64,000 nucleotides of DNA from an uncultured Candidatus Poseidoniales archaeon (GTDB taxonomy: Archaea > Thermoplasmatota > Poseidoniia > Poseidoniales > Thalassarchaeaceae): assembly GCA_902511005.1 (NCBI GenBank), contig CABXDN010000004.1:28404-92403 (forward strand), written 5' to 3'. The position numbers and the translations under genes are program-made. Under the pieces are notes generated by a model that saw nothing but the letters and a program-made list of their open reading frames with translations, was not told the DNA's origin and did not search any database. Below are positions 5,687-57,741 of the stretch, in pieces (position 1 is the first letter of the stretch; the number at the start of each line of letters is the position of its first letter).

Positions 5687-5748
5687 ATGACCTCCTACGA
5701 ATTGTTAGCAATGAAGGTTTCAAGTGAGTAGTTCGACCGGAAAGCCTG

Positions 5749-7464
5749 ATGGACAGTGATTTGGATATCGCCCGCAGGGCAGAAGCTAGGCCTATAGAAG
5801 AGATTGCCGCGAAGCTCGGACTTTCTACTAACGACTTGATTATGCAGGGTCCAACCATTGCTAAAATTAAGTGGGATACTATGAAATCTAAGTCTTCAGA
5901 TAAGCAAGGTTTCTTGATTCTTGTCACTTCTGTTAACCCAACCCCGTTCGGTGAAGGAAAAACAGTTACTACAATAGGTCTGAATCAGGGTTTAAATCGT
6001 CGAGGGCACAACGCTTCTTGTGTAATTAGAGAGCCATCCATGGGGCCTGTTTTTGGAATTAAGGGAGGGGCTGCGGGTGGTGGTTTTTCCCAAGTAATTC
6101 CTATGGAACAAATCAACCTACACTTCACTGGGGATTTACATGCTGTAACATCCGCACACAATCTTTGTTCTGCCATTCTCGATAATTATTTGCATAGGGA
6201 CAACGAACTAGATATTGATACAAACCGTATCTTCTGGCCACGAGTTATTGATATGAATGATCGTTCATTAAGAGAAGTGACAATTGGTTTAGGGGGTAAA
6301 ATGAATGGCCTTGTTAGAAGCGATAGATTTGATATTACAGCTGCGAGCGAAGTCATGGCTATCCTTTCTTTATCTAGAGATTATTCAGATTTACGTGCTC
6401 GTTTAGGTCGAATTATTATCGCAGAATCGAAGTCAGGGAAACCTGTAACTGCAGATGACATTGGTGCGGCTGGATCTATGGCATTACTACTAAGAGACGC
6501 TCTTTTACCAAATTTAGTCCAAACTTTAGAAGGTGACCCCGCCTTTGTTCATTGCGGGCCATTCGCAAACATAGCTCATGGTAATTCTTCGATTATTGCA
6601 GACTCTCTCGCTTTATCCTGTTCTGATTATGTGGTCACCGAAGCAGGATTTGGAGCAGATATGGGTGCAGAGAAAGCTCTTCATATCAAAGCTCTAGCAT
6701 CTGGAAAAACTCCTGATTGTGTCGTAATAAATGTCACAGTTAGGAGTATGAAACTCCATGGAGGGGGTTTTTCAACTGGCGGCGGAAAAAGGCCCCCTAA
6801 AGAAGAATTAGAGTCGGAAAATGTAGAAGCCACGCGCAAGGGTTCCAGCAGTAATCTTCGTCGGCATGTTCGAAATATTTCTATGACAGGCCTCCCAGTA
6901 GTGGTGTCAATTAACAAATTCTCTACAGATACTGATGATGAAATTAATGCAATTAGCGAAGAGGCCAAACTAGCAGGGGCAAGAGAAGTTGTAATTTTCG
7001 AAGGCCATGCTAATGGAGGAGAAGGTGCAGGTAATCTTGCAGATGCAGTTGTAAAGGCGTGTTCAGAACATGAAAGTGCAGGTCGACCTTACAAACCGAT
7101 AGTCGAATCAGGTATGTCAGTTAGTGAAACTATTCTGAAGATTGCCACAAATGTATACGGCGCTCATACAGTCGATTTCAGTTCACAAGCCCACCATGCT
7201 TTTGAGGTTCTTAAAAAATGGGATATGGATAAGCTTCCAGTATGTATGGCTAAGACTCAGTATTCATTTAGTCACGAAGCATCTGAACTCGGAGCACCAA
7301 CTGGCTTTACTTTACCAATAAGAGAAATTAGAATAAACGCAGGTGCCGGATTTTTAGTGGCAATTTGTGGTTCAATGATGACCATGCCTGGGCTCCCAAG
7401 AAGGCCTGCTGCTATGGATATGGATATGGATGAAGATGGCAACCTACTCGGAGTATTTGGTTGA
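5749..7464 (+). CDS. fhs: Formate--tetrahydrofolate ligase.
   Basis: 571 aa. N-terminus SDLDIARRAEARPIEEIAAKLGL and P-loop-like TPFGEGKTVTTIGL are typical of Fhs. Confidence 0.9.
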   Translation: MDSDLDIARRAEARPIEEIAAKLGLSTNDLIMQGPTIAKIKWDTMKSKSSDKQGFLILVTSVNPTPFGEGKTVTTIGLNQGLNRRGHNASCVIREPSMGPVFGIKGGAAGGGFSQVIPMEQINLHFTGDLHAVTSAHNLCSAILDNYLHRDNELDIDTNRIFWPRVIDMNDRSLREVTIGLGGKMNGLVRSDRFDITAASEVMAILSLSRDYSDLRARLGRIIIAESKSGKPVTADDIGAAGSMALLLRDALLPNLVQTLEGDPAFVHCGPFANIAHGNSSIIADSLALSCSDYVVTEAGFGADMGAEKALHIKALASGKTPDCVVINVTVRSMKLHGGGFSTGGGKRPPKEELESENVEATRKGSSSNLRRHVRNISMTGLPVVVSINKFSTDTDDEINAISEEAKLAGAREVVIFEGHANGGEGAGNLADAVVKACSEHESAGRPYKPIVESGMSVSETILKIATNVYGAHTVDFSSQAHHAFEVLKKWDMDKLPVCMAKTQYSFSHEASELGAPTGFTLPIREIRINAGAGFLVAICGSMMTMPGLPRRPAAMDMDMDEDGNLLGVFG

Positions 7465-7476
7465 GGCTGTGATTGT

Positions 7477-8535
7477 GTGCGACAAATTAAGAAGCTCGAT
7501 GAAGGAGTTCGTCTAAGGATTGAATCCGAAGACGATCTATGGGTTCTGGCTCAATTATGCCGCCCACAATCTACTTTGGGTATGCTTTCTCATCGAAGAG
7601 ATTCAACAACCGGGACGAAAGAAGATGGTCGCGCTAAAAATGCTGAAAGAAAGCCTATGTGGATAGTTCTTGAAGTAGAGAAAACAGAGTTCCAGGCATT
7701 TACTGATAATCTCCGAGCACATGGTATAATCAAAGATGCTAATTTCGACATAGGCTTACATCATACACATATTATTTCTCCAGGTGATGAAATAGAATTA
7801 TCATTCCCTGGTGGCCTTGTTAAATCTGACTTGATACTTCTCAAAGAAACAATCAAATCAGGTTCAAAGGCAAAATCTGGCCTGATTGTTGTTGAAAATG
7901 ATGAGATAATTCTCTTTGAAGTCACTTCTCATGGCATTCGTGATGTGTCACAATTTAGTATGCGTGGAGGCGGTAAAAGAATCTCCGACTCAACCAGTGT
8001 ACGCAAAAGTTTTTTCGAGAGAGTTGCGAAAGAAACTGCATTAGTATTTACTGAAAAAATACCTTTAATTATATGCGGCCCCGGTCTTGCAAGAGAGCAA
8101 TTTGAATCTATTTTACGATTAATCGGCGCTAAAAATCAGATTCTGAACATTGCTGCATCAATAGGTGGTCGTCCTGCTGCCAATGAAGTACTTGCTGAAG
8201 GATTAGCGGACTCATTTTTGGGCGAACATGCTCTCGTATCCCAGATTAAAACAATAGAAGAAGGGTTGAAGAGGATTTCAACAAACGGAGCGGTTTCTTA
8301 TGGCTCGAGATTTATTTCTGAGGCCGCGGATGCAGGGGCAATCGAAGTTCTCGCTATTGACGCTCAATTACTTCGGAGTCTAGATTCAGGAATTCGGGAG
8401 TCATGGGAATCAATTTCAGAAACGATTATTTCATCTAAGGGCCGTGTGATTCAAGTATCTCAAGATCATGATTCTGCTCAGCAACTGATGGGGTTAGGTG
8501 GAGCGTTGGCTCTACTTAGATGGAAAATGGATTGA
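7477..8535 (+). CDS. Pelota / Dom34 mRNA surveillance protein.
   Basis: 352 aa with a GTG start. The N-terminal DDLWVLAQLCRPQSTLGMLSHRR resembles the Pelota DDLWHLYNLI...RR segment. No GGQ motif is present, which argues against aRF1. The C-terminal eRF1-like domain 3 is AVSYGSRFISEAADAGAIEVLAIDAQLL. Confidence 0.65.
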   Translation: MRQIKKLDEGVRLRIESEDDLWVLAQLCRPQSTLGMLSHRRDSTTGTKEDGRAKNAERKPMWIVLEVEKTEFQAFTDNLRAHGIIKDANFDIGLHHTHIISPGDEIELSFPGGLVKSDLILLKETIKSGSKAKSGLIVVENDEIILFEVTSHGIRDVSQFSMRGGGKRISDSTSVRKSFFERVAKETALVFTEKIPLIICGPGLAREQFESILRLIGAKNQILNIAASIGGRPAANEVLAEGLADSFLGEHALVSQIKTIEEGLKRISTNGAVSYGSRFISEAADAGAIEVLAIDAQLLRSLDSGIRESWESISETIISSKGRVIQVSQDHDSAQQLMGLGGALALLRWKMD

Positions 8536-11064: not shown

Positions 11065-11140
11065 TGGTGGGACTGGCCGGACTTGAACCGGCGGCCTCCG
11101 CATCTTCAGTGCGGCGCTCTCCCAGCTGAGCTACAGTCCC
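11065..11140 (-). tRNA. tRNA-Phe (anticodon GAA), with the 3' CCA encoded.
   Basis: The reverse complement GGGACTGTAGCTCAGCTGGGAGAGCGCCGCACTGAAGATGCGGAGGCCGCCGGTTCAAGTCCGGCCAGTCCCACCA folds as a cloverleaf. It has a 7-bp acceptor stem, D arm GCTC/GAGC, anticodon loop CTGAAGA, T arm GCCGG-TTCAAGT-CCGGC, discriminator A and CCA. Confidence 0.9.
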
Positions 11141-12048: not shown

Positions 12049-12596
12049 TCTCTTCTGGCATGAGCAGGTCTGAATGAATTTACTACCTCTGAATGTGTCG
12101 TAATATAGGGCCCACCTATCAAATCAACACAATATGGTACGGCTGAAAAAATTTCATCTAAGATTTCTCTAATCGACCTAGGTGAACCTGGTAAATTAAT
12201 TATTAGACATTCACCCCTTATTCCTGCTATTTGCCTAGATAGTATGGCAGTAGGGACATATTTTAAGGAGATATTCCTCATTTGTTCACCGAATCCAGGA
12301 AGTATCCTATCACATACTGCTTCGGTAGCTTCAGGGGAAACATCTCTTGGTGCAGGGCCGGTGCCTCCCGTAGTGAGAATTACTGAACAGTTCTTATTAT
12401 CTACTAAATCACATAATTCATTTTCTATTCGTATTTTTTCATCAGGTACAATTACCCTAACTGTTTCCCAAAGTGATGATATCGCATCTTCCAAGAACCC
12501 CTCGATTGCAGGCCCACTAAGGTCTTCATAATCGCCGGAACTTGCTCTATCCGATGCTGTTAAAATTCCAAATCTGCACAAACCATCGCCTTCCAT
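12045..12596 (-). CDS. mogA: Molybdopterin adenylyltransferase (MogA/MoaB family).
   Basis: RFGILTASDRASSGDYEDLSGPAIEGFL aligns with E. coli MogA RIGLVSISDRASSGVYKDKAIPALEEWL. The TTGGTG motif is present. Confidence 0.85.
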   Translation of the reverse strand: MEGDGLCRFGILTASDRASSGDYEDLSGPAIEGFLEDAISSLWETVRVIVPDEKIRIENELCDLVDNKNCSVILTTGGTGPAPRDVSPEATEAVCDRILPGFGEQMRNISLKYVPTAILSRQIAGIRGECLIINLPGSPRSIREILDEIFSAVPYCVDLIGGPYITTHSEVVNSFRPAHARRE

Positions 12597-12787
12597 CGGC
12601 CTTCTATAAACAGCAATGAATCAAAACGCCATCGGTCCGAATCTTTGACAAACTGATGGACATGTTCAAAGACCTCCATGCTAGCAAAGGTCTCCCGGAG
12701 GTTTGCAAGTGTTGAGTCTACCCAAACATACACGCCGTTGCTATACCCCATTTTTCCATCAAGAATCTTTCTTGTTGGCATTTGCAT
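12560..12787 (-). CDS. Small hypothetical protein (75 aa). Questionable.
   Basis: This ORF fills the otherwise empty 240-bp divergent region between mogA and the RPA gene. Its 3' end overlaps the mogA start by 37 nt. Composition is not AT-rich, which is compatible with coding. No family recognised. Confidence 0.25.
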   Translation of the reverse strand: MQMPTRKILDGKMGYSNGVYVWVDSTLANLRETFASMEVFEHVHQFVKDSDRWRFDSLLFIEGRWKAMVCADLEF

Positions 12788-12837
12788 CGGTAGTTAAAGT
12801 AGTCTCGCCATTACAATCCTGATGTAGGTGTAGTATT

Positions 12838-14529
12838 ATGACAGATTATGAGAAATATGCAACGCAAGTTGCTTTGGTCAAAGAAGAATGTAAAGATGCA
12901 GATAATAATGAAATCGCAGAAGAATTTAGGAGATATGAAGAAGAATTCTTGATAGAACCTAATGATGCAGTAAGGTCTGTAATTCTTAAATTTATGAAGG
13001 CATCAGGCCAGGAAATCAAATCAATATCTAATGCTCAAACACGTGTTGAGAAAAAGGTGGATAGATTTTCAGATTTAGGTTCAGAAGATAAGAATGTAAC
13101 TATTGAAGTTGCAGTTGTAACATATGTTCCTCGTGTCCAAATGGTTCGTGGTGAGGAAAAACAAATCGCTTTTGGATGGATCGAGGATAATCCTTGGGAA
13201 TCCAATGATAAAAGAGAGAGATGGGACTTCAAAGATTGGGGGTCACATTCAGAAAATCTTGCACCCAACTCCGTCGTTAGACTCGAGGGAGTATCTGTGA
13301 ATGAATGGAATGACAAACGTTCGATTAATATTAATCGTTCGAGTAGAGTTACTGTTCTTCGCGAAGGGGGTCCATCAGTACCTCCTGTGAGTGATGAACC
13401 GGTAACAATAGAAAAGGCATCCGAAAATGAAGGCTATGTCACACTTTTAGCGAGAATAATATCGCTTAAACCCGACGTTATAGTAAAAAGAGATGGTAGC
13501 GGTAGTTTAGATATATTTAGAGGAACTTTTGCAGATTCGTCGGGTAAAATAAGCTTTCTTTCATGGGTTCCTGTTAATCATGAAATTGGAGATTTAGTGA
13601 AAATCGAAGGTGCGATGATTCGAAAATTTAGAGAGACTCCCGAAGTTAATATCAATGACAGAACTAAAATAGAAAAATATCATGATAATAATTTCGCTAG
13701 TACAGAAGAATTATCTGAAGTTACAACCTCAAAGATTGGTGATTTAAGGAACGGTATGAAAGATGTAATTACTACAGTCCAAGTAGAATCTTGGCAGTCT
13801 CGTACATTTACTAATTCAGATGGTGAAGAGAAGATAGTTAGGAGTGGAGACATCATGGATCCTACTGGCAGATGCCGCCTTACCGCTTGGTGTGAAATAG
13901 ACCCTAAGCCAGGGGACTTTCTTCACTTAACTGGTGCTCGAGTTCAATTTTGGCAAGGTTCTCCTGATCTTGTTGTTGATAATTCAGATCAGGTATCTAA
14001 CCTTACAGATGCACCATGGGAATCTATTGATCCTGAGCAACATTGGGTAGATATCGAACTTTCTAAACTTGTCACAAGTGGTTCTAGAAGGGGAATTAAG
14101 ACACGAGGCACGATTGTCGCGATTAGGTCTGATTCTGGCATAATACAAAGATGCCCAGAGTGTCGCAGGATTCTTCGAGAAAGTGCTTGTTTGGAGCATG
14201 GTCCGCAGCAGGGGGTAGAAGATTTAAGGTTAAAATTTGTAGTGGATAATGGTATCCATAATGCCTCATTAATATTAGGTAAGGAGCCTTCTGAAAAATT
14301 ATTAGGGAAAAGCCAAGAGGAGATTAAAGAAAGTATCTCTAAAAGTAGCCAAGGAGATTTTCTTACCGAAGTAAGGAATAATTATCTAGCTAGAAAGGTT
14401 ACAATTCATGGCCGCTCATTAGTAGATGCACAAGGTGCTATGATATTAGCTGAAGGAGTTATTTTTGATGATACATCAAATGAAAACGCAGCCAATTTAG
14501 TTATGGAAGAATGGGGGGTGCTTCTATGA
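12838..14529 (+). CDS. Replication protein A (RPA1-like) ssDNA-binding protein, with multiple OB folds and a C4 zinc ribbon.
   Basis: 563 aa. OB-fold-like units repeat roughly every 110 aa. The zinc ribbon CPECRR...CLEHG is typical of archaeal and eukaryotic RPA70-like proteins. It sits next to an RPA32-like gene. Confidence 0.65.
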   Translation: MTDYEKYATQVALVKEECKDADNNEIAEEFRRYEEEFLIEPNDAVRSVILKFMKASGQEIKSISNAQTRVEKKVDRFSDLGSEDKNVTIEVAVVTYVPRVQMVRGEEKQIAFGWIEDNPWESNDKRERWDFKDWGSHSENLAPNSVVRLEGVSVNEWNDKRSININRSSRVTVLREGGPSVPPVSDEPVTIEKASENEGYVTLLARIISLKPDVIVKRDGSGSLDIFRGTFADSSGKISFLSWVPVNHEIGDLVKIEGAMIRKFRETPEVNINDRTKIEKYHDNNFASTEELSEVTTSKIGDLRNGMKDVITTVQVESWQSRTFTNSDGEEKIVRSGDIMDPTGRCRLTAWCEIDPKPGDFLHLTGARVQFWQGSPDLVVDNSDQVSNLTDAPWESIDPEQHWVDIELSKLVTSGSRRGIKTRGTIVAIRSDSGIIQRCPECRRILRESACLEHGPQQGVEDLRLKFVVDNGIHNASLILGKEPSEKLLGKSQEEIKESISKSSQGDFLTEVRNNYLARKVTIHGRSLVDAQGAMILAEGVIFDDTSNENAANLVMEEWGVLL

Positions 14530-27223: not shown

Positions 27224-28609
27224 ATGACTGGAAAAGAATATAGAACAATCACTGACGTAAAAGGACCTCTTGTGTTCCTAAATAAAACTGAACCTGTTGC
27301 CTTTGGAGAGATTGTAGAATTACGCCTCACTGATGGTACTTTGAAGAATGGGCAAGTCCTAGATACATCTGACGACCAAGTTATCGTTCAGGTTTTCGAA
27401 GGTACTGCTTCAATTGATAAACAAACAGGGATAAAATTCCTTGGTGACGTGTTTAAGTTACCAGTAAGCACAGACATGATTGGAAGAATCCTTGACGGTG
27501 CTGGACGTCCAAGAGATGGTGGGCCTGCTATTGTAGCAGACGAAATGGCAGACATTATTGGTGCTGCTATCAACCCTTATTCTCGTCAGAGCCCTGATAC
27601 ATTTATTCAAACCGGAATATCTGCAATTGATGCTTGTACTTCATTAGTTCGTGGTCAGAAACTACCTATTTTCAGTGCTTCAGGACTTCCTCACAATGAT
27701 ATCGCATTACAAATTGCTCGACAGGCTAAACTGGTAGACAGTGATGATGACTTCGTAGTAGTTTTCTGTGCTATGGGAATCACGGCAGAAGAATACAATT
27801 TCTTCGTTCATGATTTGGAAAGAACTGGCGCTCTAGAGAATGCCTGTCTTTTCGTTAATCTTGCTGATGACCCTGCTGTTGAGAGATTAATTACTCCAAG
27901 ATTGGCTCTTACTGCTGCTGAATATTTAGCTTTCGAGAAGGATTATCACGTATTAGTCATCTATACAGACATGACTAACTATTGTGAATCGCTACGTCAA
28001 ATAGGTGCAGCGCGTGAAGAAGTCCCTGGTCGTAGAGGTTATCCTGGATACATGTATACTGATTTAGCAATGTTATATGAGCGAGCAGGTTTGGTTAAGG
28101 GGAAGAAAGGTTCAATCACTCAATTCCCTATATTGACAATGCCTGGTGACGATATTACTCATCCTATACCAGATCTTTCTGGATATATTACCGAGGGGCA
28201 AATTGTTATTTCTCGTGAGCTTCATCAGAAAGGAATTTATCCTCCGATTAACGTTCTACCTTCTCTATCTCGACTTATGAATGCAGGGATTGGTGACGGT
28301 AAAACTCGTGAAGATCATAAATCAGTTTCTGATCAACTTTATGCAGCATATGCTCAAGGAAGGGAATTACGTGGTTTAGTGGCAATTGTAGGTGAAGATG
28401 CTTTGAATGAGCGTGATTTACAGTTATTGAAGTTCGCGGATATTTTTGAGAATAAATTCCTTCGACAAAGTCGTGATGAAGATCGTTCAATTTCAGAGGG
28501 AACTCTTGATTATGCTTGGGAACTGCTTTCAAATATTGATACAAAATATCTTGTACGTCTTGATCAAAAGTGGATTGATAAGTATCATCCAACTGACAAA
28601 AAAGAATGA
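27224..28609 (+). CDS. atpB: A1Ao ATP synthase subunit B.
   Basis: 461 aa with a degenerate P-loop and the conserved [14 protein letters not shown] motif. Confidence 0.95.
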
Positions 28610-28634
28610 ATAAATTTAGAATTATAGTTAGGAG

Positions 28635-29261
28635 ATGAGAAAGATGGCACTAGACATCAAACCAACACGCTCAGAACTGATAAATTTGAAACGTCGTATT
28701 AAACAGACTTCAAGTGGATATAATCTCCTTAAAATGAAGAGAGATGGTTTATTCTTTGAATTCCGTACACTGTTGGCTGAGATGATTGCAGCAAGAGAAG
28801 AACTTGTGGGAACTTACCGCGACGCATTGAAATCTATTGCCTTAGCGTCATCTATTGAAGGTGGGTTAGCTGTAAAAAGCGCGGCAATTGCAGCAACATC
28901 AGGGCCAGAAGTAATGGTATCAAGAAGAAATATAATGGGTGTCGTTGTTCCTAAAGTTGAAGGTGCAAATCTTACAACCACTGTTGAAACGAGACCTACT
29001 GGAATTATTGGTGGTTCGCCATATATCGATGAATCTGCAGATTCTTATTCTATATTAATATCAAAAATTGTCAAGGCAGCAGAAATGGAAGCAACTCTGA
29101 AAAGACTTCTTGAAGAGATTGAAGCTACAAAAAGACGTGTAAACGCCTTGGAATTTGTTGTTATTCCTGAAATGAAAGAAGCACAATCATTCATTCAACT
29201 AAGATTAGAAGAGATGGAGAGAGAAGAAACATTCCGTCTTAAGAGATTCAAAAACAAGTAA
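28635..29261 (+). CDS. atpD: A1Ao ATP synthase subunit D.
   Basis: 208 aa. Motifs TRSELINLKRRIK and EATKRRVNALE are present. Last gene of the operon. Confidence 0.9.
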   Translation: MRKMALDIKPTRSELINLKRRIKQTSSGYNLLKMKRDGLFFEFRTLLAEMIAAREELVGTYRDALKSIALASSIEGGLAVKSAAIAATSGPEVMVSRRNIMGVVVPKVEGANLTTTVETRPTGIIGGSPYIDESADSYSILISKIVKAAEMEATLKRLLEEIEATKRRVNALEFVVIPEMKEAQSFIQLRLEEMEREETFRLKRFKNK

Positions 29262-29347
29262 CTTTGTATTTCTTTCTGCATAGCAGCACACACGGTTTGA
29301 TAGGGGGTAATCTATGCTCAGTAGTCAAGTGAGATGGAGGGGTGACT

Positions 29348-31762
29348 ATGTCTGACAGCAAACCAATTGTTATTGATAAAGAAACTTGGAATCAAAATGA
29401 GTTTCTAGAAACCATTTGCAATCGCTATTTTATTATCGGTAATCAATCTAGTATTGGTAATATCTCATGGGAGATTAATAGTCGTAATGACGAGGATATT
29501 AGCTCAAGTCTCGTTCTTCTTAACAAGCATCTCAAACCTCTAAGTTTGATAGGGTTATTAGATGAGGGTAATCCTCCTACATTGACAATAACAAGATATC
29601 CAGTTGATCCCGTATATGTTCCATTCTGGCAGCAGATATTAATTTGGGTGACAATGTTTTCATTTACTACATTAGCAGGAAGTTATTGGATATCTCAATA
29701 TGAGGCGAGTAATTCAGTACTGGCATTTGAGTCATTAAAAGAATCCTTTGTATATTTTAGTTTCCCTATTTTCTCCGTTACCATGTCGGCTCATCTTTTT
29801 AGAAAATATATTGCATCCCTCTTTGAGGTCGAAGTTGGTAATTTAGTACCAGTAGCATTTCCTTTGATATCTCCCTTCTGGCCATTTGGAATTGTAGGTG
29901 TTTTTGGTCAAAAGCGCATTGATACCATAACATATCCGAATCGTCGTTCGTTAGGTTTGATTGAATCATCATCTGCATTTGTATTCTTAATAGGAGGTTC
30001 TATTTTATCGCTCATAGGTATTACATTGACCTCTGATTTACCTCCCGAAATTATATCTAATCCAATACTATTAGAATTAAACGTTATAGTTGATTTATTG
30101 TCGAATCTATTTATTGATTCGGATATCTCAGTAAGGCTTCAGTGGGTCCACCCATTAGTTCTAGCAGGTTCTGGATTATCGATAATTGGTTGGATACTTC
30201 TTCTCCCTATACCTGGGTTCCCTGGTGATAGAATTTTACATTCAATACTTGGTCCTAAAAACCTCGAATCAAATGAAAATGAAACTTCATTATTCTTAAT
30301 CACTCTAGGAATTATGTGCATAGTTTTCTTAGAAACTATATTTTGGCCTTGGTTGATTCTTGCATCATTGGCATCTTGGAGAAGATTTAGTGGAGATCAT
30401 ATACCAACTCCCTTGGTAGTAGATGAGGCATTTGGTATTGATAGGAAATTTCGAAATACATTTACTACAGCGATAGTTGTTGCATTACTGCTAGGTTTTC
30501 CAGGAGTTCACCCAGTTAAACAAATTTCTAATTTAGAAGAGGGCTTGGATATATCGAGTTGGGATAATCAGATAGATTACCTAGATGAAGGGATTAATTC
30601 TTTGGGTCTGTATCCTTCAGGGATAATGCCTGTTTCTGGGACAATACAGGTTTTAATCGAGGGAGATAATGAAAGATGGGATATTGACTCTGAATGTTTT
30701 GATGATAAATTAATTTGCTATTTTGAAAATATCAGTCAAAATAATCATGGTTCATTTGACTTTTCGATTTTAGATAATAATTTAACCGAAACTTCTCCAG
30801 TACAGTTACGTTTTATCATAGAGACAGGAGACTCAACTAAAGAACATGTTATCGCAGTCAAGTATCCTAATATCACATCTCCCGATCCTCTTTGGCATAG
30901 AGATGATGAATCTCCAAAAGAAAGAATTTGTATAAATATTGAAGTTATTGAAAACCAATCTGGTAATTTAACCGTAAGTTCAAATCCATTCTGGTCAATA
31001 GAAAATTCAAGTTTCCTTTCAGGGGGTGAGAATGAATTATGCCTTATATCAGAAAAAGGAGGCTGGGAATCGTTAAAAATCGGTAATTCAGGAATTTCTG
31101 GCTATAGAATGGGACCTATTGTTGAATTTGAATCTGATAATGGCGAAAAAACAATTTGGAATTTGCCGATTGAAAATTCTTATGTTAATATATACCTGAA
31201 TCAAACCACTGGTCTTAGATTAAATCAAGTCACAGATGGTGTACTATATTCCGACACATTCAGCTCACCGTTCTGTCCTTCTGAAAATATTATTCCGACA
31301 TTAGACTCGAATTCAACGGATAATCTTACTCTTTTGATAGGTTCACCAATTATTATTGATGGAGATTATGAGAATAGGAGTATATTGGTCCCTGAAAGCG
31401 GATGGATAGTAAATTGTGATGCTGAAAATTCAAGGGCATATTCTCTGAAATCAGGTTTTGATATAGACATAGACGGTTTAATGATGAATGACTCAAAATT
31501 ACCATTCTCAGATCTAACTATTAATTCAAGGGAAGACACGGATCTAAGTTTAACTCTAGACATATCTAGTAATTTAAGAAATGACTCTGGATTAGAAATC
31601 TCATTGCCAGATTCAATCCCTGCAAATGATTCAGTAGATATTGGAATCAATTTTAATGAAATAGATAGTGAAATCTGGAAAGTATTTTGGATTACCCAAG
31701 ATTCCGATAGTTTAACTCTACATTTTGTATTAAAATGCCCCATTGGGGGATGCAACAATTGA
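29348..31762 (+). CDS. Large membrane protein with an N-terminal M50/S2P-protease-like polytopic domain (zinc motif apparently lost) and a roughly 400-aa Asn/Ser/Asp-rich putative extracellular domain.
   Basis: LLPIPGFPGDRILHS matches the M50 NLLPIPPLDGGRIL motif. At the position expected for HExxH the sequence reads MSAHLFRKY, so E is replaced by L and the second H by K. There are about 9 predicted TM helices in the first 380 aa. The C-terminal domain carries more than 12 N-x-S/T sequons. The region is noticeably more AT-rich than the flanking operon. Start is ATG 29348; the track ORF begins at GTG 29342. Confidence 0.45.
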   Translation: MSDSKPIVIDKETWNQNEFLETICNRYFIIGNQSSIGNISWEINSRNDEDISSSLVLLNKHLKPLSLIGLLDEGNPPTLTITRYPVDPVYVPFWQQILIWVTMFSFTTLAGSYWISQYEASNSVLAFESLKESFVYFSFPIFSVTMSAHLFRKYIASLFEVEVGNLVPVAFPLISPFWPFGIVGVFGQKRIDTITYPNRRSLGLIESSSAFVFLIGGSILSLIGITLTSDLPPEIISNPILLELNVIVDLLSNLFIDSDISVRLQWVHPLVLAGSGLSIIGWILLLPIPGFPGDRILHSILGPKNLESNENETSLFLITLGIMCIVFLETIFWPWLILASLASWRRFSGDHIPTPLVVDEAFGIDRKFRNTFTTAIVVALLLGFPGVHPVKQISNLEEGLDISSWDNQIDYLDEGINSLGLYPSGIMPVSGTIQVLIEGDNERWDIDSECFDDKLICYFENISQNNHGSFDFSILDNNLTETSPVQLRFIIETGDSTKEHVIAVKYPNITSPDPLWHRDDESPKERICINIEVIENQSGNLTVSSNPFWSIENSSFLSGGENELCLISEKGGWESLKIGNSGISGYRMGPIVEFESDNGEKTIWNLPIENSYVNIYLNQTTGLRLNQVTDGVLYSDTFSSPFCPSENIIPTLDSNSTDNLTLLIGSPIIIDGDYENRSILVPESGWIVNCDAENSRAYSLKSGFDIDIDGLMMNDSKLPFSDLTINSREDTDLSLTLDISSNLRNDSGLEISLPDSIPANDSVDIGINFNEIDSEIWKVFWITQDSDSLTLHFVLKCPIGGCNN

Positions 31763-32709
31763 GAGTGGCAATAATTGGGGTAGGTTCTATTGGAGGGATT
31801 ATTCTTGGTGCTATGGCAGATACTGATGTAGATTTAGTCTGTATTTCTAGGGGTTCCACTGCAACAAGTTTGTCTAACTTGGGACTAGTTTTACACACTC
31901 CTGAAGGGAGCATAGAAGTTGTCCCTTCCGAAAGATATCTGCTAGTAGACAGTCAAGCTGGTCCTCTTTCAGAGCAGATACGAGGTACCTGCGATATCGC
32001 AATAATTTGTGGGAAGACGCTTGATACACCAGCATTAGCCGAATTAGCATCCGAGGTACTTACAGAAAACGGATATGCGTTGACTATCCAAAATGGGTTG
32101 GGTAACGCAGAAATATTAGCCAATAGGATTGGTCGTGAACGTATATTTGTCGGTTCACTTACCCATGCAGCCTGGCGAAGTGATGAAGGAGAGGTTCATT
32201 GGGTAGGTAGAGGGAGTATTAATCTCGGTGCATTGAACATAGAAGAAAATGTTAGAGCAGAACCTCTTCTAAGGATTCTTAATGATGCCGATCTCAATGC
32301 TACATTAAGTAATGATATTCAACAGATTCTTTGGAAAAAATTACTGATTAATGTCGCAATTAACCCAGTTTGCGCTATTGCTGGAGTTCGTAATGGGGCT
32401 CTTTTAGAAGTCAATTCACTTTGGCAACAAGCAATGCAGGCTATGCGTGAAGCCGCTATTGTAGCACGCGCTAGTGGAGTAGATTTAGGCGATATAAAAT
32501 TAGAAAAGTATCTTCGAGAAGTAGTAACGATCTCTCCTGAGAATAGATGCTCGATGCTACAAGATATAATGGCAGGCAGACCTACTGAGATTGATGCATT
32601 ATGTGGTGCAGTAGTTCTAAGGGGTGAGGCTGAAGGAATACCGACCCCTTGTAATGCAATATTACATGGGCTGATCAAAGGGATTGAAAAGTCTTCTAAA
32701 TTTGATTGA
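31750..32709 (+). CDS. panE: 2-Dehydropantoate 2-reductase (ketopantoate reductase).
   Basis: Rossmann N-terminus LRVAIIGVGSIGG. CSMLQDIMAGRPTEIDALCGAVV matches the PanE SMLQDxExGRxTEIDxxNGxVV segment. It overlaps the upstream gene by 13 nt. Confidence 0.8.
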   Translation: MQQLRVAIIGVGSIGGIILGAMADTDVDLVCISRGSTATSLSNLGLVLHTPEGSIEVVPSERYLLVDSQAGPLSEQIRGTCDIAIICGKTLDTPALAELASEVLTENGYALTIQNGLGNAEILANRIGRERIFVGSLTHAAWRSDEGEVHWVGRGSINLGALNIEENVRAEPLLRILNDADLNATLSNDIQQILWKKLLINVAINPVCAIAGVRNGALLEVNSLWQQAMQAMREAAIVARASGVDLGDIKLEKYLREVVTISPENRCSMLQDIMAGRPTEIDALCGAVVLRGEAEGIPTPCNAILHGLIKGIEKSSKFD

Positions 32710-32712
32710 TAT

Positions 32713-34347
32713 TTATTCTAAGTCTTTATTGTAATGTAAGCCAATATTTTCTTTCCTAGATAATGATGCACTAACTACAATTTTTGCAACTTGTATAAGG
32801 TTTCTTAGTTCTACTAGATCTTGTGTAGGTTTACATCTTTCCCAGATTATATTAACTTCATTTTCTAAATGATTGATTCTTCTTTCTGCTCTTTTCAGTC
32901 TATCGTTACTTTTTACAATCCCTACATCCATTGTCATAGTTGTTCTCAGGGCGTCTAAATCTGTACGTAAAGGCGAATGTTCAATTAATGTGGAAAGATT
33001 ATCTGCGCGCCAGAGTGGAATATTTTTAGGTAACTTCTGTAATTCATTTTGATTGTATTTTTCAATTATATTTTTCGCTGCCCGTTCTGAATATACCACC
33101 GCTTCAAGAAGACTGTTTGATGCTAGCCGATTTGCTCCATGTAACCCGGTTCTTGCTACTTCTCCAATTGCATAAAGTCCTGGCATCTTTTTATCATTTA
33201 CAAGCGCATGACCATAGTGGTTAACATTCACACCACCGACCATGTAGTGAGCAGCTGGAATCACAGGAATCGGATCTTTCCCAATAGAAATTCCATAGGA
33301 TTTTAATTTTTTATCTATATTTGGAAACTTTTCAATCAATTTATTTTGATTTAAGTGTTCAGTAATCAGAAATACATGTTTATCTCCCGTTTTCTTTAAT
33401 TCGGAATCAATAGCTCTTGCTACAATATCTCTTGTACCAAGTGATCCCATTTCAGAATATTTATTCATAAATGAATGGTGCTCTGGGTTTTCAAATTCTG
33501 ATTTTTTCCAGTTTTTAATATCCTGTTTAGTCATTAAAATTGCACCATATCCTCTCATTGCTTCAGTAATTAAAAATGGTCTGGAACTATCTAAGGACAA
33601 TGATGTGGGGTGGAATTGTATAAATTCAATATCTTTAATATCTGCTCCAACTCTAAGTGCCATTCCAACTCCATCACCTGTTGCAATTGATGGGTTTGTT
33701 GTCGAACGATGTAGGTAACCAACCCCTCCTGTAGCTAAAACTATCGCTTTTGCAGGTAATGTATGTACTACTCCTGAAGGTGCAAGGCACCAAACACCAA
33801 CCACTCCCTTTTCTGGCGATCGATATTCTTTCTGAATTAGATCAATTCCCATCCAATTTTCTAGTATTACAAATCTGTCATCAATTTCTCCCGATGTGGA
33901 CTTAGTTAGTGCTCTCTCAATTTCTTCTCCAGTGGCGTCCTTTGAATGTAGTATTCTTTCATCTGAGTGTCCGCCTTCTCTAACTCTATCAAATTCTCCA
34001 CTCTCATTCTTATCAAAACGGACTCCGTGTTTGATTAAATCTCTTATTCTATCCGCTGCTTCTAATACTACTGATTCAACTACTTCTTCATTGCAAAGCC
34101 CGGCGCCGGCAGAAATGGTATCTTTTACATGGGCATCAATAGCATCTTGATCTTCTGGGTTAAGTACACCAGCAATTCCTCCTTGTGCCCAATTTGTATT
34201 CGATGTAGAGATATTCTTTTTAGTAATTAAAGCAACATTCAGTCCCTTCTGTACGCAACGATGTGCTAAAAATAAGCCCGCTATCCCTGAACCAATAACT
34301 GCAACATCTACTGGCTCCATTAATTCGTCTTCGACGATGTCACCCAT
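32713..34347 (-). CDS. nadB: L-aspartate oxidase-like FAD flavoprotein (NadB/SdhA family, non-covalent FAD type).
   Basis: VAVIGSGIAGLFLA is the FAD fold. NTNWAQGGIAGV lacks the His that binds FAD covalently in SdhA. RPFLITEAMRGYGAIL is the active-site loop, and GLHGANRLASNSLLE is C-terminal. 544 aa. No nadA or nadC gene is adjacent, so the assignment rests on motifs only. Confidence 0.65.
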   Translation of the reverse strand: MGDIVEDELMEPVDVAVIGSGIAGLFLAHRCVQKGLNVALITKKNISTSNTNWAQGGIAGVLNPEDQDAIDAHVKDTISAGAGLCNEEVVESVVLEAADRIRDLIKHGVRFDKNESGEFDRVREGGHSDERILHSKDATGEEIERALTKSTSGEIDDRFVILENWMGIDLIQKEYRSPEKGVVGVWCLAPSGVVHTLPAKAIVLATGGVGYLHRSTTNPSIATGDGVGMALRVGADIKDIEFIQFHPTSLSLDSSRPFLITEAMRGYGAILMTKQDIKNWKKSEFENPEHHSFMNKYSEMGSLGTRDIVARAIDSELKKTGDKHVFLITEHLNQNKLIEKFPNIDKKLKSYGISIGKDPIPVIPAAHYMVGGVNVNHYGHALVNDKKMPGLYAIGEVARTGLHGANRLASNSLLEAVVYSERAAKNIIEKYNQNELQKLPKNIPLWRADNLSTLIEHSPLRTDLDALRTTMTMDVGIVKSNDRLKRAERRINHLENEVNIIWERCKPTQDLVELRNLIQVAKIVVSASLSRKENIGLHYNKDLE

Positions 34348-34525
34348 ATTACTCTCGATGGGGGGGCTCTGAATGAATCTTCGCTTATTTTTCCGGTTAA
34401 CGGCCTAAAATAAGAGGTCTATTTTTCGCTCTGCTGCGCTCTTGTCCTCCTCAATGTTCATAGACGGAAATGCGGCAGCCAACTAATGATGTCGGCGAGA
34501 AATTGCTGATATTATATGGTGATGG

Positions 34526-37500
34526 GATGCATCTAGTAAGAATTGAACTTGAAAATTTCAAATCATTTGGTGGACAAATAATTATACCATTTGAGGAGGG
34601 ATTCACTGCAATAACAGGCCCTAATGGTTCAGGGAAGTCTAATTGTGGAGATGCTATACAATTTGTTTTAGGGCCTAAATCTACTCGTTCTCTTCGTGCA
34701 TCTAATGTTTCAGAATTAATATTCAACGGTGGAGGCGGAGGGAAAGCTGCTCGAAATATGTCTGCAACGCTTGTTTTTGAAAACTCGCCCGAATCTGATG
34801 GTCGCCGTAGATTAAGAATTGATACCGAAGAAGTTTCATTTACGCGTTCAGTCAGATTAAACCGTAAAAACGATACGATTTCATCATATTACATCAATGG
34901 TAATCCTTCTACTGCCACTGAAATGAGGAGAGTTTTGGCTGAAGCAGGCCTACATGGCGATGGTTACAACATTGTATTGCAAGGAGATGTCACGAATCTG
35001 GCCTCTATGACTCCTCACAAAAGGAGAGGAGTCCTTGAAGAAGTAGCTGGGGTGACTGCTTATGACGATGAAATACGTCGTGCTAATAATCAACGTAAGG
35101 TAGTCGAAAACAATATTGAAACTATCGATTTATTTGAAGAAGAACAAAAAACAAGGCTAAAAGGTTTGGAAAAAGAGCGCCAACAGGCATTGAAATTTAA
35201 AGATCTGAAAGATGAATTAGATTTGAACAAGGTAGTCCTTCAACAATCTAGGCACCGTAATAGATTAGATGAGGTCAGACTTTTGGGCGAGGAGCGTTCA
35301 AGTTATTCTGAACAAATCACTGGCCTCACAGAGAATATAAGGGCTGGGAATCAAAATCTAGGCAACTTCGATGAAGAACTTGTACAAATTGGAAATGATT
35401 TAGATGATATAATGAGCGGAGACGCGAGAGAATTACTAGATACTATTCGTCAACATGAAATTGATATCGAAACTAATTCTGACAGAGTAGGCGATCAATT
35501 GAAAATTATCGAATCTACTGAAGAAGATATTGAAATTATTCGAGAAGATTATGAAAGCGCAGAGAATGCAAGGGAGTCTGGTCAAGAAGAGTTGAATCAA
35601 GCCAAGGAATCTTTATTGAAAGCAGACTCTGATCTTATTCAGGCTGCTTCTGACGAGAAACAAGCAAGGGAGGCAATCCAGTCAGGAGATAGACATGGTC
35701 GTGATTTAAATCGTGCACTTGGTCAAGCAACCGACTTAGTTGCAGAAAAGCATCAAGAGTATTCTATTGCTAGATTAGAATCAGATAGGGCGGAGCAAAC
35801 TGCTCAAATTTCCTCCGAAAAACTAGCAGATTTGGAAGAAGAATACGAACAAGCGACACTTAATAGAGATGATTTAACATTAGTCGGAGAAGAGATTCAA
35901 GGTGGTGGAGGACAGGTAGACCGAACTGCTTTGGCGAATGAATTACAAAGATTAACTAAGCAAGAAATTGGATTGCGTGAAGATCGAGATCGCTCTGAAG
36001 TTAAGGCTAGAGATGCAGAAGTTGAATTGGCAAAGGCCAGAGCAAGACAAGAAGCCAAAGCAAATAGGCCAGGGTCGGCTATAACTATAGCTGCTCTAAC
36101 AAAATTAAGGCAGAGCGGAGAGATTAAGGGCATTCTTGGCACATTAGGTGAGTTATGTTCTCCAAAAGATGCAGCGCATGAAGATGCATTAGCATTAGCG
36201 CTAGGGAATGGTTTGAGGAGCATAGTAGTCACTAATGACGAAGTTGCAGCCGAGTGTATCAAGTGGCTTCGACTTAATGTTGGAGGGCGTGCAACATTCT
36301 TACCTCTAAATAAATTGAATGTATCTAGGCCACAAGGAAGGACATTAATTGTCGCTAGAAATCAGGGAGTCCTTGGTTTTGCTCATGATTTACTAGATTA
36401 TGACTTAGAAGTCGATATTGCAGTTAGATATGCCTCTAGAAATACCCTGATTGTACAATCAATGGATGTGGCACGAAAGAATATGGGCGGTGTCCGCATG
36501 GTTACACTGAAAGGAGATATCATCGAAGGTTCAGGTGCAATGACTGGAGGTTCTCCTGCAGGCTCTTCAAGGCCGCGTTTCGGGGGGGGCAGTCCGGGGC
36601 AACTAGGTTCTGAGAGGCTTGAGAGATCAGTTGAAGAAGCGAATCTAATTTATTCAACTGTTGAAGCAGCATTAAGAGAATTACGTACTAATCAACAGAA
36701 ATTACGTGATCAAATCCATGGTCTAGACGATAGTGATCAATCGGTTAAGATACGTGAGTGGAAATCTGATCTTTCACGTGCGCAGAAAGATGTTGATGAG
36801 ATAGGTAAAAAGATTATATCTGCTAGAGATGAATTCTCACGTGTTGATAAATTATTCATTTCATCTAAGGAAGCGGCCGATAAAGCGAATCTGGATCATG
36901 AAGAATCGCTCAAATCAAGATCTGACGCCGCTACTGCACTTCAAAATCATACACCCGATCATCTTTCAGAAATATTAAGGAACGCAGAAAAAACAAGGAC
37001 AGATGCTGAAAGGACGAAGATTGTATCCGATGCTGCAATTCTTAATGGGACTGAAAGAATGGATATTCTTTCGAATAGGTTGTCTGAACTTTCCAGACAA
37101 ATAAACAATAAAGAAAAATTAATTTCTGACGCTAGGGAGGCAATAGTTTCTCTGCAAGAATCTATAACTAATTCTCAAGAGTTATTGGTGGACTTAAAGG
37201 GACAATCTTCACAATTTGATGAAGAACAGCAAATTCTAACCCAACGTCGAGAAATAATTATTGAAGAGAGAGCGAGTTTAAGGGCTACTCTAGATTCACA
37301 TTCTCAGAAACGTGAAACATTAACCTCAAGGATTGAAGAATTGAATATTCAAATCCAACAAAAAAGAGCGGCAGTGAATGAAATTGTCGCAGAATTAGCA
37401 GATGCGGAAATCGACGTACCATCTGCTGACATCCAATTACCCACTGTGGCCGAGGCGGAAAGAGTAGTGCAGGGACTCGAACGTCGCCTCGGTCATCTAG

Positions 37501-38459
37501 GTGATGTCAATATGTTAGCTATAGAGCAATACGACATTGCAGTCGAACGTGTAGCTGGGCTAATAGAAGATGGAAAAATACTCCGGCAAAGGCGTGACGA
37601 CCTTGTAGGTATTGCAGATAGACTTGAATCTGAGAGGAAAAAGAGGCTTCTCCTAGTATTTGAACACGTAAATAGAAATTTCAGTCGTGTGTATGCGCAG
37701 TTACAACCCGGTGGAATAGGTAGTCTTCGGTTAGAGAATCTAAAGAATCCATTTGACGGAGGTCTTGAGATGGACTGCGTACCTCCTGGTAAGAATAGTA
37801 AAACTCGTAGAAATTTATTATCAGGTGGTGAAAAATCGATGGCTGCTCTAGCCCTAATATTCGCGATACAAGATTACGAGCCAAGTCCATTCTATTATTT
37901 CGATGAGGTTGATCAAAATTTAGATCCATTTAATTCTGAATTAATTGCTGCACTTTGTTTAATGCGTTCACAAAGGGCGCAATTCATCATGGTCACATTA
38001 AGAAAAGTCAGTTTGAATCTCGCTAATCACCATATCGGTATCACCCATGCAGGTGATGGATGTAGTCGCCGAATAACTGATTTCGATCGTGCTGCTGCGC
38101 TACAGATGAGTGAAGAGATGGAAAAAGAAGAAGCCGCTCGAAAACAGTCAGAAACTGAACGTTCAGAATTAGTATTACCTGATCCTGAAAAGATGCCACG
38201 AGTCCCTGAGCCTCTTGGGACTCCTAAGTCATTAGGGGGTCTGGCGGAAAGGGCAGGTTTAGATATTGATGAATCCGAGGTAGATGAGATAGGTGAAGAA
38301 TCTTCAAAAACTGGGGATTTAATCGCATTAAGGGAAAGAACTGAAGATTGGACTGAAGATATTGAGGAAGCTGATATAATTCAAAATGCATTGGTCGATG
38401 AAGAAAATCTCAAGAATAGTAATGACGAGGTTACTTCACCTGAAGTAGAAATTGAGTGA
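34526..38459 (+). CDS. smc: Chromosome segregation protein SMC, with a roughly 140-aa acidic C-terminal extension.
   Basis: N-terminal Walker A head MHLVRIELENFKSFGG...ITGPNGSGKSN. Long coiled coils and a hinge region are present. The C-terminal head carries the signature LSGGEKSMAALALIFAIQDYEPSPFYYFDEVDQNLD. Start is the ATG at 34526, downstream of the track start. Confidence 0.9.
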
Positions 38460-57654: not shown

Positions 57655-57741
57655 TGGCGCGGCAGGGGAGATTCGAACTCCCGAGGTGAAACACCACTGG
57701 ATTAGCAATCCAGCGCAATGGCCAGGCTATGCGACTGCCGC
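57655..57741 (-). tRNA. tRNA-Ser (anticodon GCT), class II with a long variable arm and encoded CCA.
   Basis: The reverse complement GCGGCAGTCGCATAGCCTGGCCATTGCGCTGGATTGCTAATCCAGTGGTGTTTCACCTCGGGAGTTCGAATCTCCCCTGCCGCGCCA folds as a cloverleaf. Anticodon stem-loop CTGGA-TTGCTAA-TCCAG, a 14-nt variable arm and T loop TTCGAAT. Confidence 0.85.

Follow-up and report, generated by a model that had tools for sequence, protein, structure and literature searches.

Rhomboid pseudoproteases such as the iRhoms and Derlins have lost catalysis and retained client binding, while to our knowledge pseudoproteases of the site-2 protease (S2P) family have so far been described for plant EGY3 only. EGY3 is a chloroplast S2P-family pseudoprotease without the HExxH motif that stabilises partner proteins (PMC10978774, PMC9355673), and as a plant thylakoid protein it has been reported from plants only (PMC9355673). 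The active members of the S2P/M50 family (Pfam PF02163, MEROPS M50) take up their substrates by beta-augmentation of a re-entrant loop (PMC11486902). Among them, MjS2P (3B4R) and SpoIVFB (8VJL/8VJM) are zinc proteases with cytoplasmic CBS domains, and the three-domain S2Ps of the Thermoplasmata, the Methanomassiliicoccales and other Thermoplasmatota (annotated as 'site-2 protease family protein', PF02163; for example P0205, P0376 and P0429) keep both of the catalytic motifs, as HE[LMF][GA]H and NLLPxGQLDGGH.

Here we describe gene X, found in a 64,000-nt stretch of DNA from a Poseidoniales archaeon (the window), which is annotated as 'hypothetical' and without a Pfam domain everywhere. X is a true, highly diverged homolog of the S2P/M50 intramembrane metalloproteases, and is probably the order-wide Poseidoniales (Marine Group II, MGII) descendant of the three-domain S2P of other Thermoplasmatota, a dead enzyme in which the S2P fold has been kept. 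At about 20% identity, its architecture is collinear with that of the active Thermoplasmatota proteins, the parts in common being a ~90-aa alpha/beta domain, an M50 core with the re-entrant loop, a basic loop, a last transmembrane helix (TM) and a sequon-rich Ig-like C-terminal domain, whereas X and its orthologs are without both catalytic motifs. The original prediction described X as a fusion to a sequon-rich ectodomain. Since intact Thermoplasmata and Methanomassiliicoccales S2Ps share this arrangement, the three-part architecture is, judging from the sequences, inherited from active Thermoplasmatota S2Ps and not a new fusion.

With MjS2P and SpoIVFB, X shares the six-TM topology and the re-entrant beta-loop after the metal-binding helix (probability 0.98-1.00) at a sequence identity of 10-14%, but it has no zinc ligands, carries an N-terminal cytoplasmic domain instead of the CBS domains, and adds a seventh TM and a predicted extracellular domain. 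Like EGY3, it is an S2P homolog without HExxH that is conserved across its own lineage, and its order-wide motif loss together with purifying selection (dN/dS 0.02-0.21) fits a pseudoprotease of the EGY3 type; unlike EGY3, X has also lost the Asp ligand, and no large glycosylated ectodomain has been described for EGY3. The two likely arose, or lost catalysis, independently, because EGY3 is reported as plant-specific and the nearest relatives of X are archaeal active S2Ps. The original prediction could match X to no described family, but M50/S2P fits and a described analog exists. The likeness to iRhoms and Derlins is one of analogy only, as these eukaryotic proteins are serine-type rhomboids, unrelated to X in fold and family.

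Results

Gene X (29348..31762; this and all features below lie on the + strand) encodes an 804-aa protein, as delimited from the ORF list, the N-termini of its homologs and dN/dS. An in-frame GTG at 29342 is an alternative start to the ATG at 29348, and the latter agrees with the aligned N-termini of the homologs. A Shine-Dalgarno-like GGAGG (29336..29340), read from the sequence 8 nt 5' of the ATG, is kept as GGAGG or GGTGG at close loci. Everything that the original prediction had read directly from the letters proved correct, namely the ORF coordinates, the AHLFRK motif, the CPIGGCNN end, the more than 12 sequons (13 by our count), the Asn/Ser/Asp-rich C-terminal part of ~400 aa (Ser 12.6%, Asp 9.4%, Asn 9.1%), the start 86 nt past the stop of atpD (PF01813, E 4e-56) and the overlap with panE. 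So did the AT-richness of the gene, with a GC content of 34.4% against 39.0% for the window and 37.8-42.2% for atpA, atpB, atpD and panE. The GC3 of X (24%) is the same as that of its neighbours (23-28%), so the AT-richness is due to amino-acid composition and not to a foreign origin; horizontal transfer was rejected on this ground and also because the gene is syntenic order-wide. A decaying pseudogene was likewise rejected, as the ORF is intact in all lineages with dN/dS at about 0.1.

Only profiles of homologs linked X to M50. As a single sequence, X gave no M50 match against Pfam and NCBIfam, nor against the PDB by phmmer, and the family profile gave none against PDB sequences. The X family profile, by comparison, retrieves bona fide Peptidase_M50 proteins of the same architecture. 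When the X family was aligned to these active relatives with hhalign (99.5%, E 5e-23, 493 columns), query residues 18-540 paired with template residues 5-521, covering all three domains. An HMM built from the active S2Ps matches the window ORF in return (E 7e-23), and the active set links to MjS2P 3B4R (E 6e-6). The Pfam M50 model PF02163 matches 4 of the 36 X family members directly, and one member scores 26.5 bits against a cut-off of 27.2. The membrane domain of X is thereby connected to M50, as originally predicted.

The predicted structure points the same way. An AF2 model of X (pLDDT 80.6, pTM 0.82) adopts what appears to be an S2P fold, and its only Foldseek matches in the PDB with a probability of at least 0.98 are 3B4R, 8VJL and 8VJM, the next best reaching no more than 0.44; the TM-score against 3B4R, normalised on 3B4R, is 0.52. 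The LLPIP match on which the original prediction was based is not spurious, because this confident model matches S2P structures and nothing else. From hhalign, HMM, AF2 and Foldseek evidence together, we place the S2P/M50-like membrane core at aa 94-398 (29627..30541), with six TMs and a seventh that would lead the chain outside. It is preceded by an N-terminal, presumably cytoplasmic alpha/beta domain (aa 1-93; 29348..29626), common to the active Thermoplasmatota S2Ps, for which AF2 predicts helices at 16-25 and 51-65 and strands at 28-33, 39-45, 67-72 and 78-83 (pLDDT about 85), and which hhalign aligns to the N-terminal domain of the active relatives.

The catalytic positions of this core are degenerate. 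In the MAFFT alignment, H-E-x-x-H falls on A-H-L-F-R of the site A148-H149-L150-F151-R152-K153 (29789..29806), while hhalign shifts the match by one residue, to H-L-F-R-K. The corresponding columns across the 36 members read A28/S3, S24/H6/N3 and R19/Q14; HExxH was found in none of the family members, and in TM2 of the family neither a Glu nor a second His is conserved. The clade to which the window belongs still has one His at the motif position, where 24 of the 36 members have Ser. The second site, NxxPxxxLDG, corresponds to LLLPIPGFPGDRIL (aa 284-297; 30197..30238) by MAFFT, hhalign and column counts. Here the Asn of NxxP has become Leu in X (Leu, Ser or Met in most members) and the Asp ligand has become Pro292, in a column that reads P33/A2/S1. 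D294 lies two residues past the ligand column, opposite the second Gly of LDGG, and its column is D18/G15, residue 294 being Gly in MGIIa. It had been proposed that the GD of PGDRIL retains the Asp of the S2P signature, but this Asp is not the zinc ligand, whose column has Pro in all but three of the 36 members, and consequently X has lost the NxxP Asn and the catalytic Glu along with its three metal ligands. The reduction of HExxH to AHLFRK, with the Glu and the second His gone, therefore stands as predicted, but it is not the whole of the loss, as the NxxP Asn and the Asp ligand are gone as well. Across the homologs surveyed, the catalytic columns are substituted in 36 of 36 members, there is no intact HExxH elsewhere in X, and no alternative conserved His/Asp/Glu set was found in the helices of the family. 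With every catalytic position replaced, X is most simply read as the catalytically dead intramembrane-protease fold of the original prediction, and would be proteolytically inactive.

By conservation score, the most conserved segments of X are the former NxxP helix (0.64), the former LDG turn (0.58) and the re-entrant loop (0.55), the former HExxH helix scoring 0.41, and within the core it is the LLLPIPGFPGDRIL region that is conserved most. The re-entrant beta-loop GNLVPVAFPLISPFWPFGIVGVFGQKRID (aa 164-192; 29837..29923), placed by AF2 and conservation, is the counterpart of the substrate-capturing loop of S2Ps, with beta strands predicted at 166-169, 184-187 and 195-198 between TM2 and TM3. 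P168, W178, P179, F180 and G181 are invariant order-wide, as are the motifs WPFG and LPIPxFPG. That these cleft elements are conserved could also be due to the demands of folding or packing and not to ligand binding. Before TM7 lies the basic cytoplasmic loop WRRFSGDHIPTPLVVDE (aa 344-360; 30377..30427), which is aligned with the GxxHPPPLND loop of the active relatives. Read from the sequence, basic residues are concentrated in the loops predicted to be cytoplasmic, and the predicted helices, the S2P topology and the positive-inside rule combine to suggest an N-in/C-out orientation.

The chain outside the membrane, aa 399-804 (30542..31759), is a predicted ectodomain of tandem Ig-like/PapD-like beta sandwiches with 13 sequons, eight Cys and the CPIGGCNN end, as delimited by sequons, Cys residues and Foldseek. 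The 13 N-x-S/T sequons in the C-terminal ~400 aa (16 in the whole protein) compare with 6.1 +/- 2.2 expected from composition. Summed over the 36 members, the ectodomain holds 378 against 160 expected (2.36x), an excess beyond chance, while the N-terminal domain (1.08x) and the membrane core (1.25x) show none. Cys450, 457, 528, 565, 643 and 690 are kept order-wide, and C797/C802 within MGIIb. A Foldseek search with the full-length AF2 model, made from an 18-sequence alignment and of low confidence (pLDDT 55.8), matched Ig-like arrays down to E 4e-9, and at the same position the active relatives have Ig_VWA7, HYDIN-like Ig, NEW3 and FixG_C domains. The roughly 400 aa would thus form surface Ig-like modules, probably disulfide-bonded and N-glycosylated, placed outside by the seventh TM. 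The ectodomain is the fastest-evolving part of X, and X evolves much faster than its neighbour genes. All three domains are under strong purifying selection, dN/dS being 0.02-0.21 in each.

MGIIb has intact orthologs of X in no fewer than 99 GTDB species, and others were found in MGIIa and in a divergent lineage; the GTDB scan was run with the narrower alignment A4 and reports only the MGIIb-type motif, because the wide alignment A3 has no stretch conserved enough. The dead family spans the Poseidoniales, both MGIIa and MGIIb, as a single-copy gene in a fixed genomic slot, the atp-X-panE block. In MGIIa, and in 80 of 80 MGIIb loci, X comes directly after atpD and shares its strand. At its 3' end, the ORFs place an overlap of 28 nt (31735..31762) with the start of panE, the ketopantoate reductase gene, or of 13 nt if panE begins at its second ATG, and adjacency to or overlap with panE was seen in every locus with enough flank. 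This includes the divergent locus L092, where three genes lie between atpD and X and the overlap with panE persists. The active homologs of other Thermoplasmatota sit in variable, unrelated contexts, never near atp genes. A corA gene-inversion in Poseidoniales was also considered and set aside, as it concerns a different locus.

Locus comparison revealed a conserved element, CACACGGTTTGATAGGGG (29288..29306), in the spacer between atpD and X, which is possibly a promoter element. It is kept in many MGIIb loci and is similar in one MGIIa locus. The spacer gave no match in an Rfam search and no stable RNA fold (z = +1.43). In the window, the motif has 8 matches against 2.8 expected, with most copies intragenic, and it was not found there as a general motif at a fixed distance from starts. 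With a promoter belonging to X itself, transcription would be expected to begin some 25 nt past GGTTTGATAGGGG. Given this element and the insertion in L092, co-transcription of X with the ATP synthase genes is no more than a suggestion.

Discussion

What, then, might a dead S2P be retained for throughout an order? We tentatively favour the view that X acts without catalysis, as a 'substrate-trap' receptor or scaffold. In what was once the active-site cleft, an extended stretch of a membrane client might still be bound through beta-strand augmentation, and the client would then be held there uncut. The fast-evolving and presumably glycosylated ectodomain, for its part, could supply a surface interaction, with a ligand, a particle, a neighbouring cell or a virus. 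In this, X would resemble iRhoms, Derlins and plant EGY3, in which a dead intramembrane-protease fold has been turned to holding or stabilising partner proteins.

Several other explanations have to be set against this one. The thought that X is still a protease, with a non-canonical catalytic centre such as a metal site of H268, D192 or D359, is prompted by a few polar residues kept within the core or close to it (R190, D192, R199, T228, H268, R295 and D359) and by the one motif His that the window's clade has retained. However, the relatives that bear HExxH conserve the same polar residues just as well, which makes these structural features of the subfamily, not replacements; moreover, 24 of 36 members have Ser in place of the motif His, H268 is itself replaced in 6 of 36, and TM2 offers neither a conserved Glu nor a second His, so that we consider a surviving protease very improbable. 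We give equally little credence to the idea that X is transcribed together with the A-type ATP synthase genes and helps the enzyme as an accessory or assembly protein. Its place right behind atpD, in the same orientation, at all 80 MGIIb loci and in MGIIa would suit such a factor, as would the Shine-Dalgarno site and a spacer without a bacterial-type terminator, although the scan model is bacterial and hence uninformative for an archaeon. But the whole block atp-X-panE-nadB-smc is syntenic, and the adjacency of X and the atp genes consequently carries little functional signal; in L092 it is the overlap with panE, not the neighbourhood of atpD, that is retained, the active homologs of other Thermoplasmatota are never near atp genes, and the spacer holds a conserved element of its own.

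The remaining alternatives are closer to the substrate-trap reading. X could be mainly a surface glycoprotein, that is, an adhesin, an envelope or S-layer-like protein, or a virus or toxin receptor, with the dead S2P core as a mere multi-pass anchor. An ectodomain that is sequon-enriched, probably disulfide-bonded and Ig-like agrees with this, evolution that is fastest in the ectodomain and faster in X than in its neighbours is as expected of exposed surface proteins, and S2P proteins do serve as bacteriocin receptors (RseP/EntK1, PMC9672952). A mere anchor, however, would have no need of the order-wide invariance of WPFG and LPIPxFPG or of a conservation peak at the former cleft, and the cytoplasmic N-terminal domain is likewise conserved at low dN/dS; we regard the anchor as unlikely, if still deserving of attention. 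The surface-glycoprotein and substrate-trap readings are not mutually exclusive, and both can hold. It is more doubtful that X regulates intramembrane proteolysis as an iRhom-like decoy or adaptor, competing for substrates of an active protease elsewhere in the genome or delivering them to it. Its retained substrate-capture elements would serve such a purpose, and in other families dead intramembrane-protease paralogs, the iRhoms and Derlins, steer the fate of clients. Yet no active M50 gene lies in the 64-kb window or near the MGII loci examined, cluster look-ups, which carry no taxonomy, placed none of the closest active relatives in Poseidoniales, and M50 is not mentioned in an MGII comparative-genomics paper.

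Returning to the substrate trap, a more elaborate version of it can be envisioned, improbable as we take it to be, in which the Poseidoniales S2P has turned into a non-proteolytic transmembrane receptor. Binding of a ligand or particle at the Ig-like ectodomain would control whether a membrane-tethered client is captured or released in the fossil cleft, and this would be relayed to the cytoplasmic alpha/beta domain. If true, such a receptor would amount to 'regulated intramembrane proteolysis without the proteolysis'.

Conclusions

Marine Group II are the dominant planktonic archaea of the surface oceans and are uncultured. The identification of X as a dead S2P gives an order-wide gene so far called 'hypothetical' a structural identity and a testable function, and extends the S2P-family pseudoproteases from plant EGY3 to archaea. 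It also offers a natural experiment, useful for separating binding from catalysis, in that the catalytic residues are gone and the cleft for substrate capture is what is most conserved. In MGII, the fast-evolving and presumably glycosylated ectodomain may serve in adhesion to particles or cells or in recognising viruses. Should the receptor reading hold, X would be a first for prokaryotes, an S2P pseudoprotease that signals or scaffolds, and one present throughout the planktonic archaea that are most abundant at the ocean surface.

Genomic context and distribution of X

The ORF studied here, X (804 aa), occupies the + strand from 29342 (GTG) or 29348 (ATG) to 31762. The ATG is the likely start, since the N-termini of homologs align there and a GGAGG precedes it by 8 nt; residues are numbered from it unless stated otherwise. 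Archaeal A-type ATPase genes, the A and B subunits and then subunit D (PF01813, E 4e-56), lie 5' of X, and panE (ApbA/ApbA_C), nadB on the opposite strand and smc lie 3'. The original prediction was correct about the 86-nt gap after atpD, the overlap with panE and the AT-richness of X (GC 34.4% vs 39.0% in its surroundings). Third-position GC equals that of the neighbouring genes, so the AT-richness stems from amino-acid composition, and foreign origin was ruled out as its source. The only tRNA genes in the window are tRNA-Phe(GAA) at 11065-11140 (-) and tRNA-Ser(GCT) at 57655-57741 (-).

A first database search gave 277 relatives, all from marine 'Euryarchaeota' or Thalassarchaeaceae, all labelled 'hypothetical' and none with a Pfam domain. 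Scanning GTDB with one genome per species, we found 99 X loci, all assigned to Poseidoniales, Thalassarchaeaceae or MGIIb (MGII, Marine Group II); the nearest ortholog, 92% identical, is in a single-cell genome, and the divergent half of the family, with 'PTFPGGR', belongs to the Poseidoniaceae (MGIIa). The gene immediately 5' of X is atpD in 80/80 loci and panE follows in every locus with sufficient flank, the atpD-X-panE order being the same in MGIIa and MGIIb. The block is still recognisable at L092, which lies on a 3.0-Mb contig and represents a more divergent lineage; there three genes without a Pfam match (406, 73 and 228 aa; 5377-7920) are inserted between atpD and X while a 41-nt X/panE overlap is kept. 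The tight link is thus that of X with panE rather than with atpD. Co-transcription with the ATPase operon, originally held to be probable, is one of two options, the other being a start of X at the conserved spacer element. The same locus has a 652-aa gene between panE and nadB (12143-14101). At two MGIIa loci, L086 (12246-13016) and L087 (12211-12966), a 251-256-aa gene without a Pfam domain lies between nadB and smc, and is absent from the window and the MGIIb loci.

The atpD-X spacer holds a conserved intergenic element, CACACGGTTTGATAGGGG (29288-29306), about 42 nt 5' of the X start. It is common to many MGIIb loci and lies upstream of X at L006-L013, L016, L031, L035, L044 and L087; a similar element, CGGTTTGACAAGGGGGG, is seen at one MGIIa locus. 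CACACGGTTTGATAGGGG matches nothing in Rfam, does not form a stable RNA fold and may be a promoter element. Upstream of a few other window genes, e.g. 17687+, 45637- and 56764-, there is a loose [TC]ATAGGGG-like element. Other MGIIb clades (L019, L020, L022, L026, L030, L053, L056, L075) have a different spacer element, GAGGGGTCAAAnCGGACCyCCCC, whose conservation and possible GGGGTC/GACCCC hairpin suggest a clade-specific regulatory or terminator-like structure.

Homology to site-2 proteases

As a single sequence, X matched no S2P (site-2 protease) or M50 entry in Pfam, NCBIfam or PDB, and a profile of 18 family sequences found no S2P among PDB sequences. Deeper profiles revealed the connection to Peptidase_M50. 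When 1.84 billion representatives were searched with the family profile (hmmsearch), the matches comprised about 45 clusters of family members (790-886 aa) and, at E 5e-8 to 9e-4, distant proteins aligned over residues ~18-450; 10/10 of those scanned were Peptidase_M50 (PF02163, E 1e-21 to 1e-25), with HE[LM][GA]H and NLLPxGQLDGGH both intact. Profile-profile comparison joined the family to this active group (99.5% probability, E 5e-23, 493 columns), an HMM built from the active proteins alone matched X (E 7e-23) and no other window ORF, and the active group itself matched 3B4R, the S2P structure of M. jannaschii (E 6e-6). PF02163 directly matched 4 of 36 diverse family members, and one member scored 26.5 bits against a cut-off of 27.2 bits.

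A structure model built on a shallow alignment had low confidence (pLDDT 55.8). A second, of residues 1-404 with 66 sequences from MGIIb, MGIIa and active Thermoplasmatota S2Ps, reached pLDDT 80.6 and pTM 0.82. Its high-probability Foldseek matches in PDB were MjS2P 3B4R (prob 1.00, TM 0.52 on target) and SpoIVFB 8VJL and 8VJM (0.99 and 0.98), all others having prob <= 0.44. In the model an N-terminal alpha/beta domain precedes TM1 (93-119); then come TM2, the former HExxH helix (127-158), three short strands (166-169, 184-187, 195-198), TM3 to TM6, and last a seventh helix (366-382). The model thus reproduces the elements of the S2P core and differs from it in this extra TM helix. X therefore has the S2P fold and is a diverged homolog of S2Ps. 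The LLPIPxxxGDRIL signature, present as LLLPIPGFPGDRIL at 284-297, is not spurious, as the only high-probability structural matches are S2Ps, and X, originally thought to match no described family, can be placed in M50/S2P.

Loss of the catalytic residues

The AHLFRK that stands for HExxH was found at 148-153. MAFFT sets H-E-x-x-H opposite A148-H149-L150-F151-R152, and hhalign, shifted by one, opposite H149-L150-F151-R152-K153; in either register the Glu and second His are gone, as had been claimed. Across 36 diverse members, the first-His column (MAFFT register) holds A28, S3 and other 5, the Glu column S24, H6, N3 and other 3, and the second-His column R19, Q14, H2 and E1; the Asn of NxxP is chiefly Leu, Ser or Met, and the Asp ligand of LDGG is P33, A2 and S1. 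HExxH occurs nowhere in the core of any family member. Every catalytic and metal-binding position is thus replaced throughout the Poseidoniales, in support of a catalytically dead S2P fold, and X is predicted to be unable to hydrolyse peptide bonds. The Asp of GDRIL in the signature noted originally, D294 (D296 in GTG numbering; column D18, G15, other 3), falls opposite the second Gly of LDGG and is not the zinc ligand. Few polar residues stay conserved (R190, D192, R199, T228, H268, R295, D359), and all are kept equally in active relatives, which marks them as subfamily features and makes a substitute active site built from them unlikely.

Ectodomain and topology

The C-terminal ~400 aa are indeed Ser-, Asp- and Asn-rich, end in CPIGGCNN and carry 13 sequons vs 6.1 +/- 2.2 expected from composition. 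Over the 36 members this domain has 378 sequons vs 160 expected (composition-matched, 2.36-fold), and the N-terminal domain (1.08x) and core (1.25x) are at expectation. Cysteines 450, 457, 528, 565, 643 and 690 are conserved order-wide, and 797 and 802 within MGIIb. A low-confidence full-length model gave strong local Foldseek matches (to E 4e-9) to Ig-like, PapD-like and ASH-type beta sandwich arrays: hydin repeats, pilus chaperones, Sap S-layer domains and Gram-positive adhesins. The same place is taken in active relatives by Ig_VWA7, HYDIN/VesB-like Ig, NEW3, FixG_C or fn3 domains, so the fusion is not particular to X; its architecture was inherited from active Thermoplasmatota S2Ps. These intact relatives, from Thermoplasmata, Methanomassiliicoccales and other Thermoplasmatota, are labelled 'site-2 protease family proteins', and 0/6 of their loci checked were near atp or panE.

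In six-TM S2Ps both termini are cytoplasmic, so the seventh helix would place the C-terminal domain of X outside. Loops predicted to lie in the cytoplasm are basic (GQKRIDTITYPNRRS; WRRF...DRKFRN), those predicted to lie outside acidic or neutral. Three independent lines agree on this predicted topology, and the C-terminal domain would be extracellular and N-glycosylated. Glycosylation is not expected at the NQS and NIS sequons of the predicted cytoplasmic N-terminal domain (29447-29470; aa 34-41, GTG numbering) or at NET (aa 313), which the predicted topology puts on the cytoplasmic side of the core; NQS is conserved in the majority of MGIIb members, presumably on other grounds.

Selection and possible function

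X is kept by purifying selection: nine pairs of close orthologs gave dN/dS values of 0.02-0.21 for every one of the three domains, with a range of 0.08-0.13 for the dead core. It is also the fastest-evolving gene of the syntenic block (27224-38459 vs L006-L085, other X loci), identities at the same divergence being ~93% for AtpB, ~85% for AtpD, ~65% for SMC, ~55% for PanE and ~35% for X. Within the protein, divergence is fastest in the ectodomain (long-range identity 16% vs 26-27% in the N-terminal domain and core). In the core, mean majority frequency is highest for the former NxxP helix (0.64), followed by the former LDG turn (0.58) and then the re-entrant loop (0.55), in which P168, W178, P179, F180 and G181 are invariant; the former HExxH helix (0.41) is among the least conserved.

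The original candidates, a receptor, an adhesin anchor or a regulator, remain the ones to choose between. In S2Ps, substrates are captured when they add a beta-strand to the re-entrant loop (PMC11486902), and since no part of X is better preserved than this loop and the LPIPxFPG turn opposite it, binding without cleavage is suggested; we infer that the former substrate cleft is still in use. Most likely, loop and turn would hold an extended segment of a membrane client, leave it uncut, and act together with the surface-exposed Ig-like array. A pure surface glycoprotein, with the dead core as a passive anchor, ranks second to such a receptor or scaffold; it would fit the sequon-rich ectodomain, and would leave the preserved loop and turn without a role. 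A protease regulator ranks third; no active S2P gene lies within the window or near the loci examined.

Among described proteins the nearest analog of X is EGY3 of plant thylakoids, a pseudoprotease that is without HExxH and stabilises partner proteins (PMC10978774). EGY3 has been reported from plants only (PMC9355673), and the function of archaeal S2Ps in general is given as unknown (PMC9263693). X is an archaeal S2P pseudoprotease, and an order-wide one.
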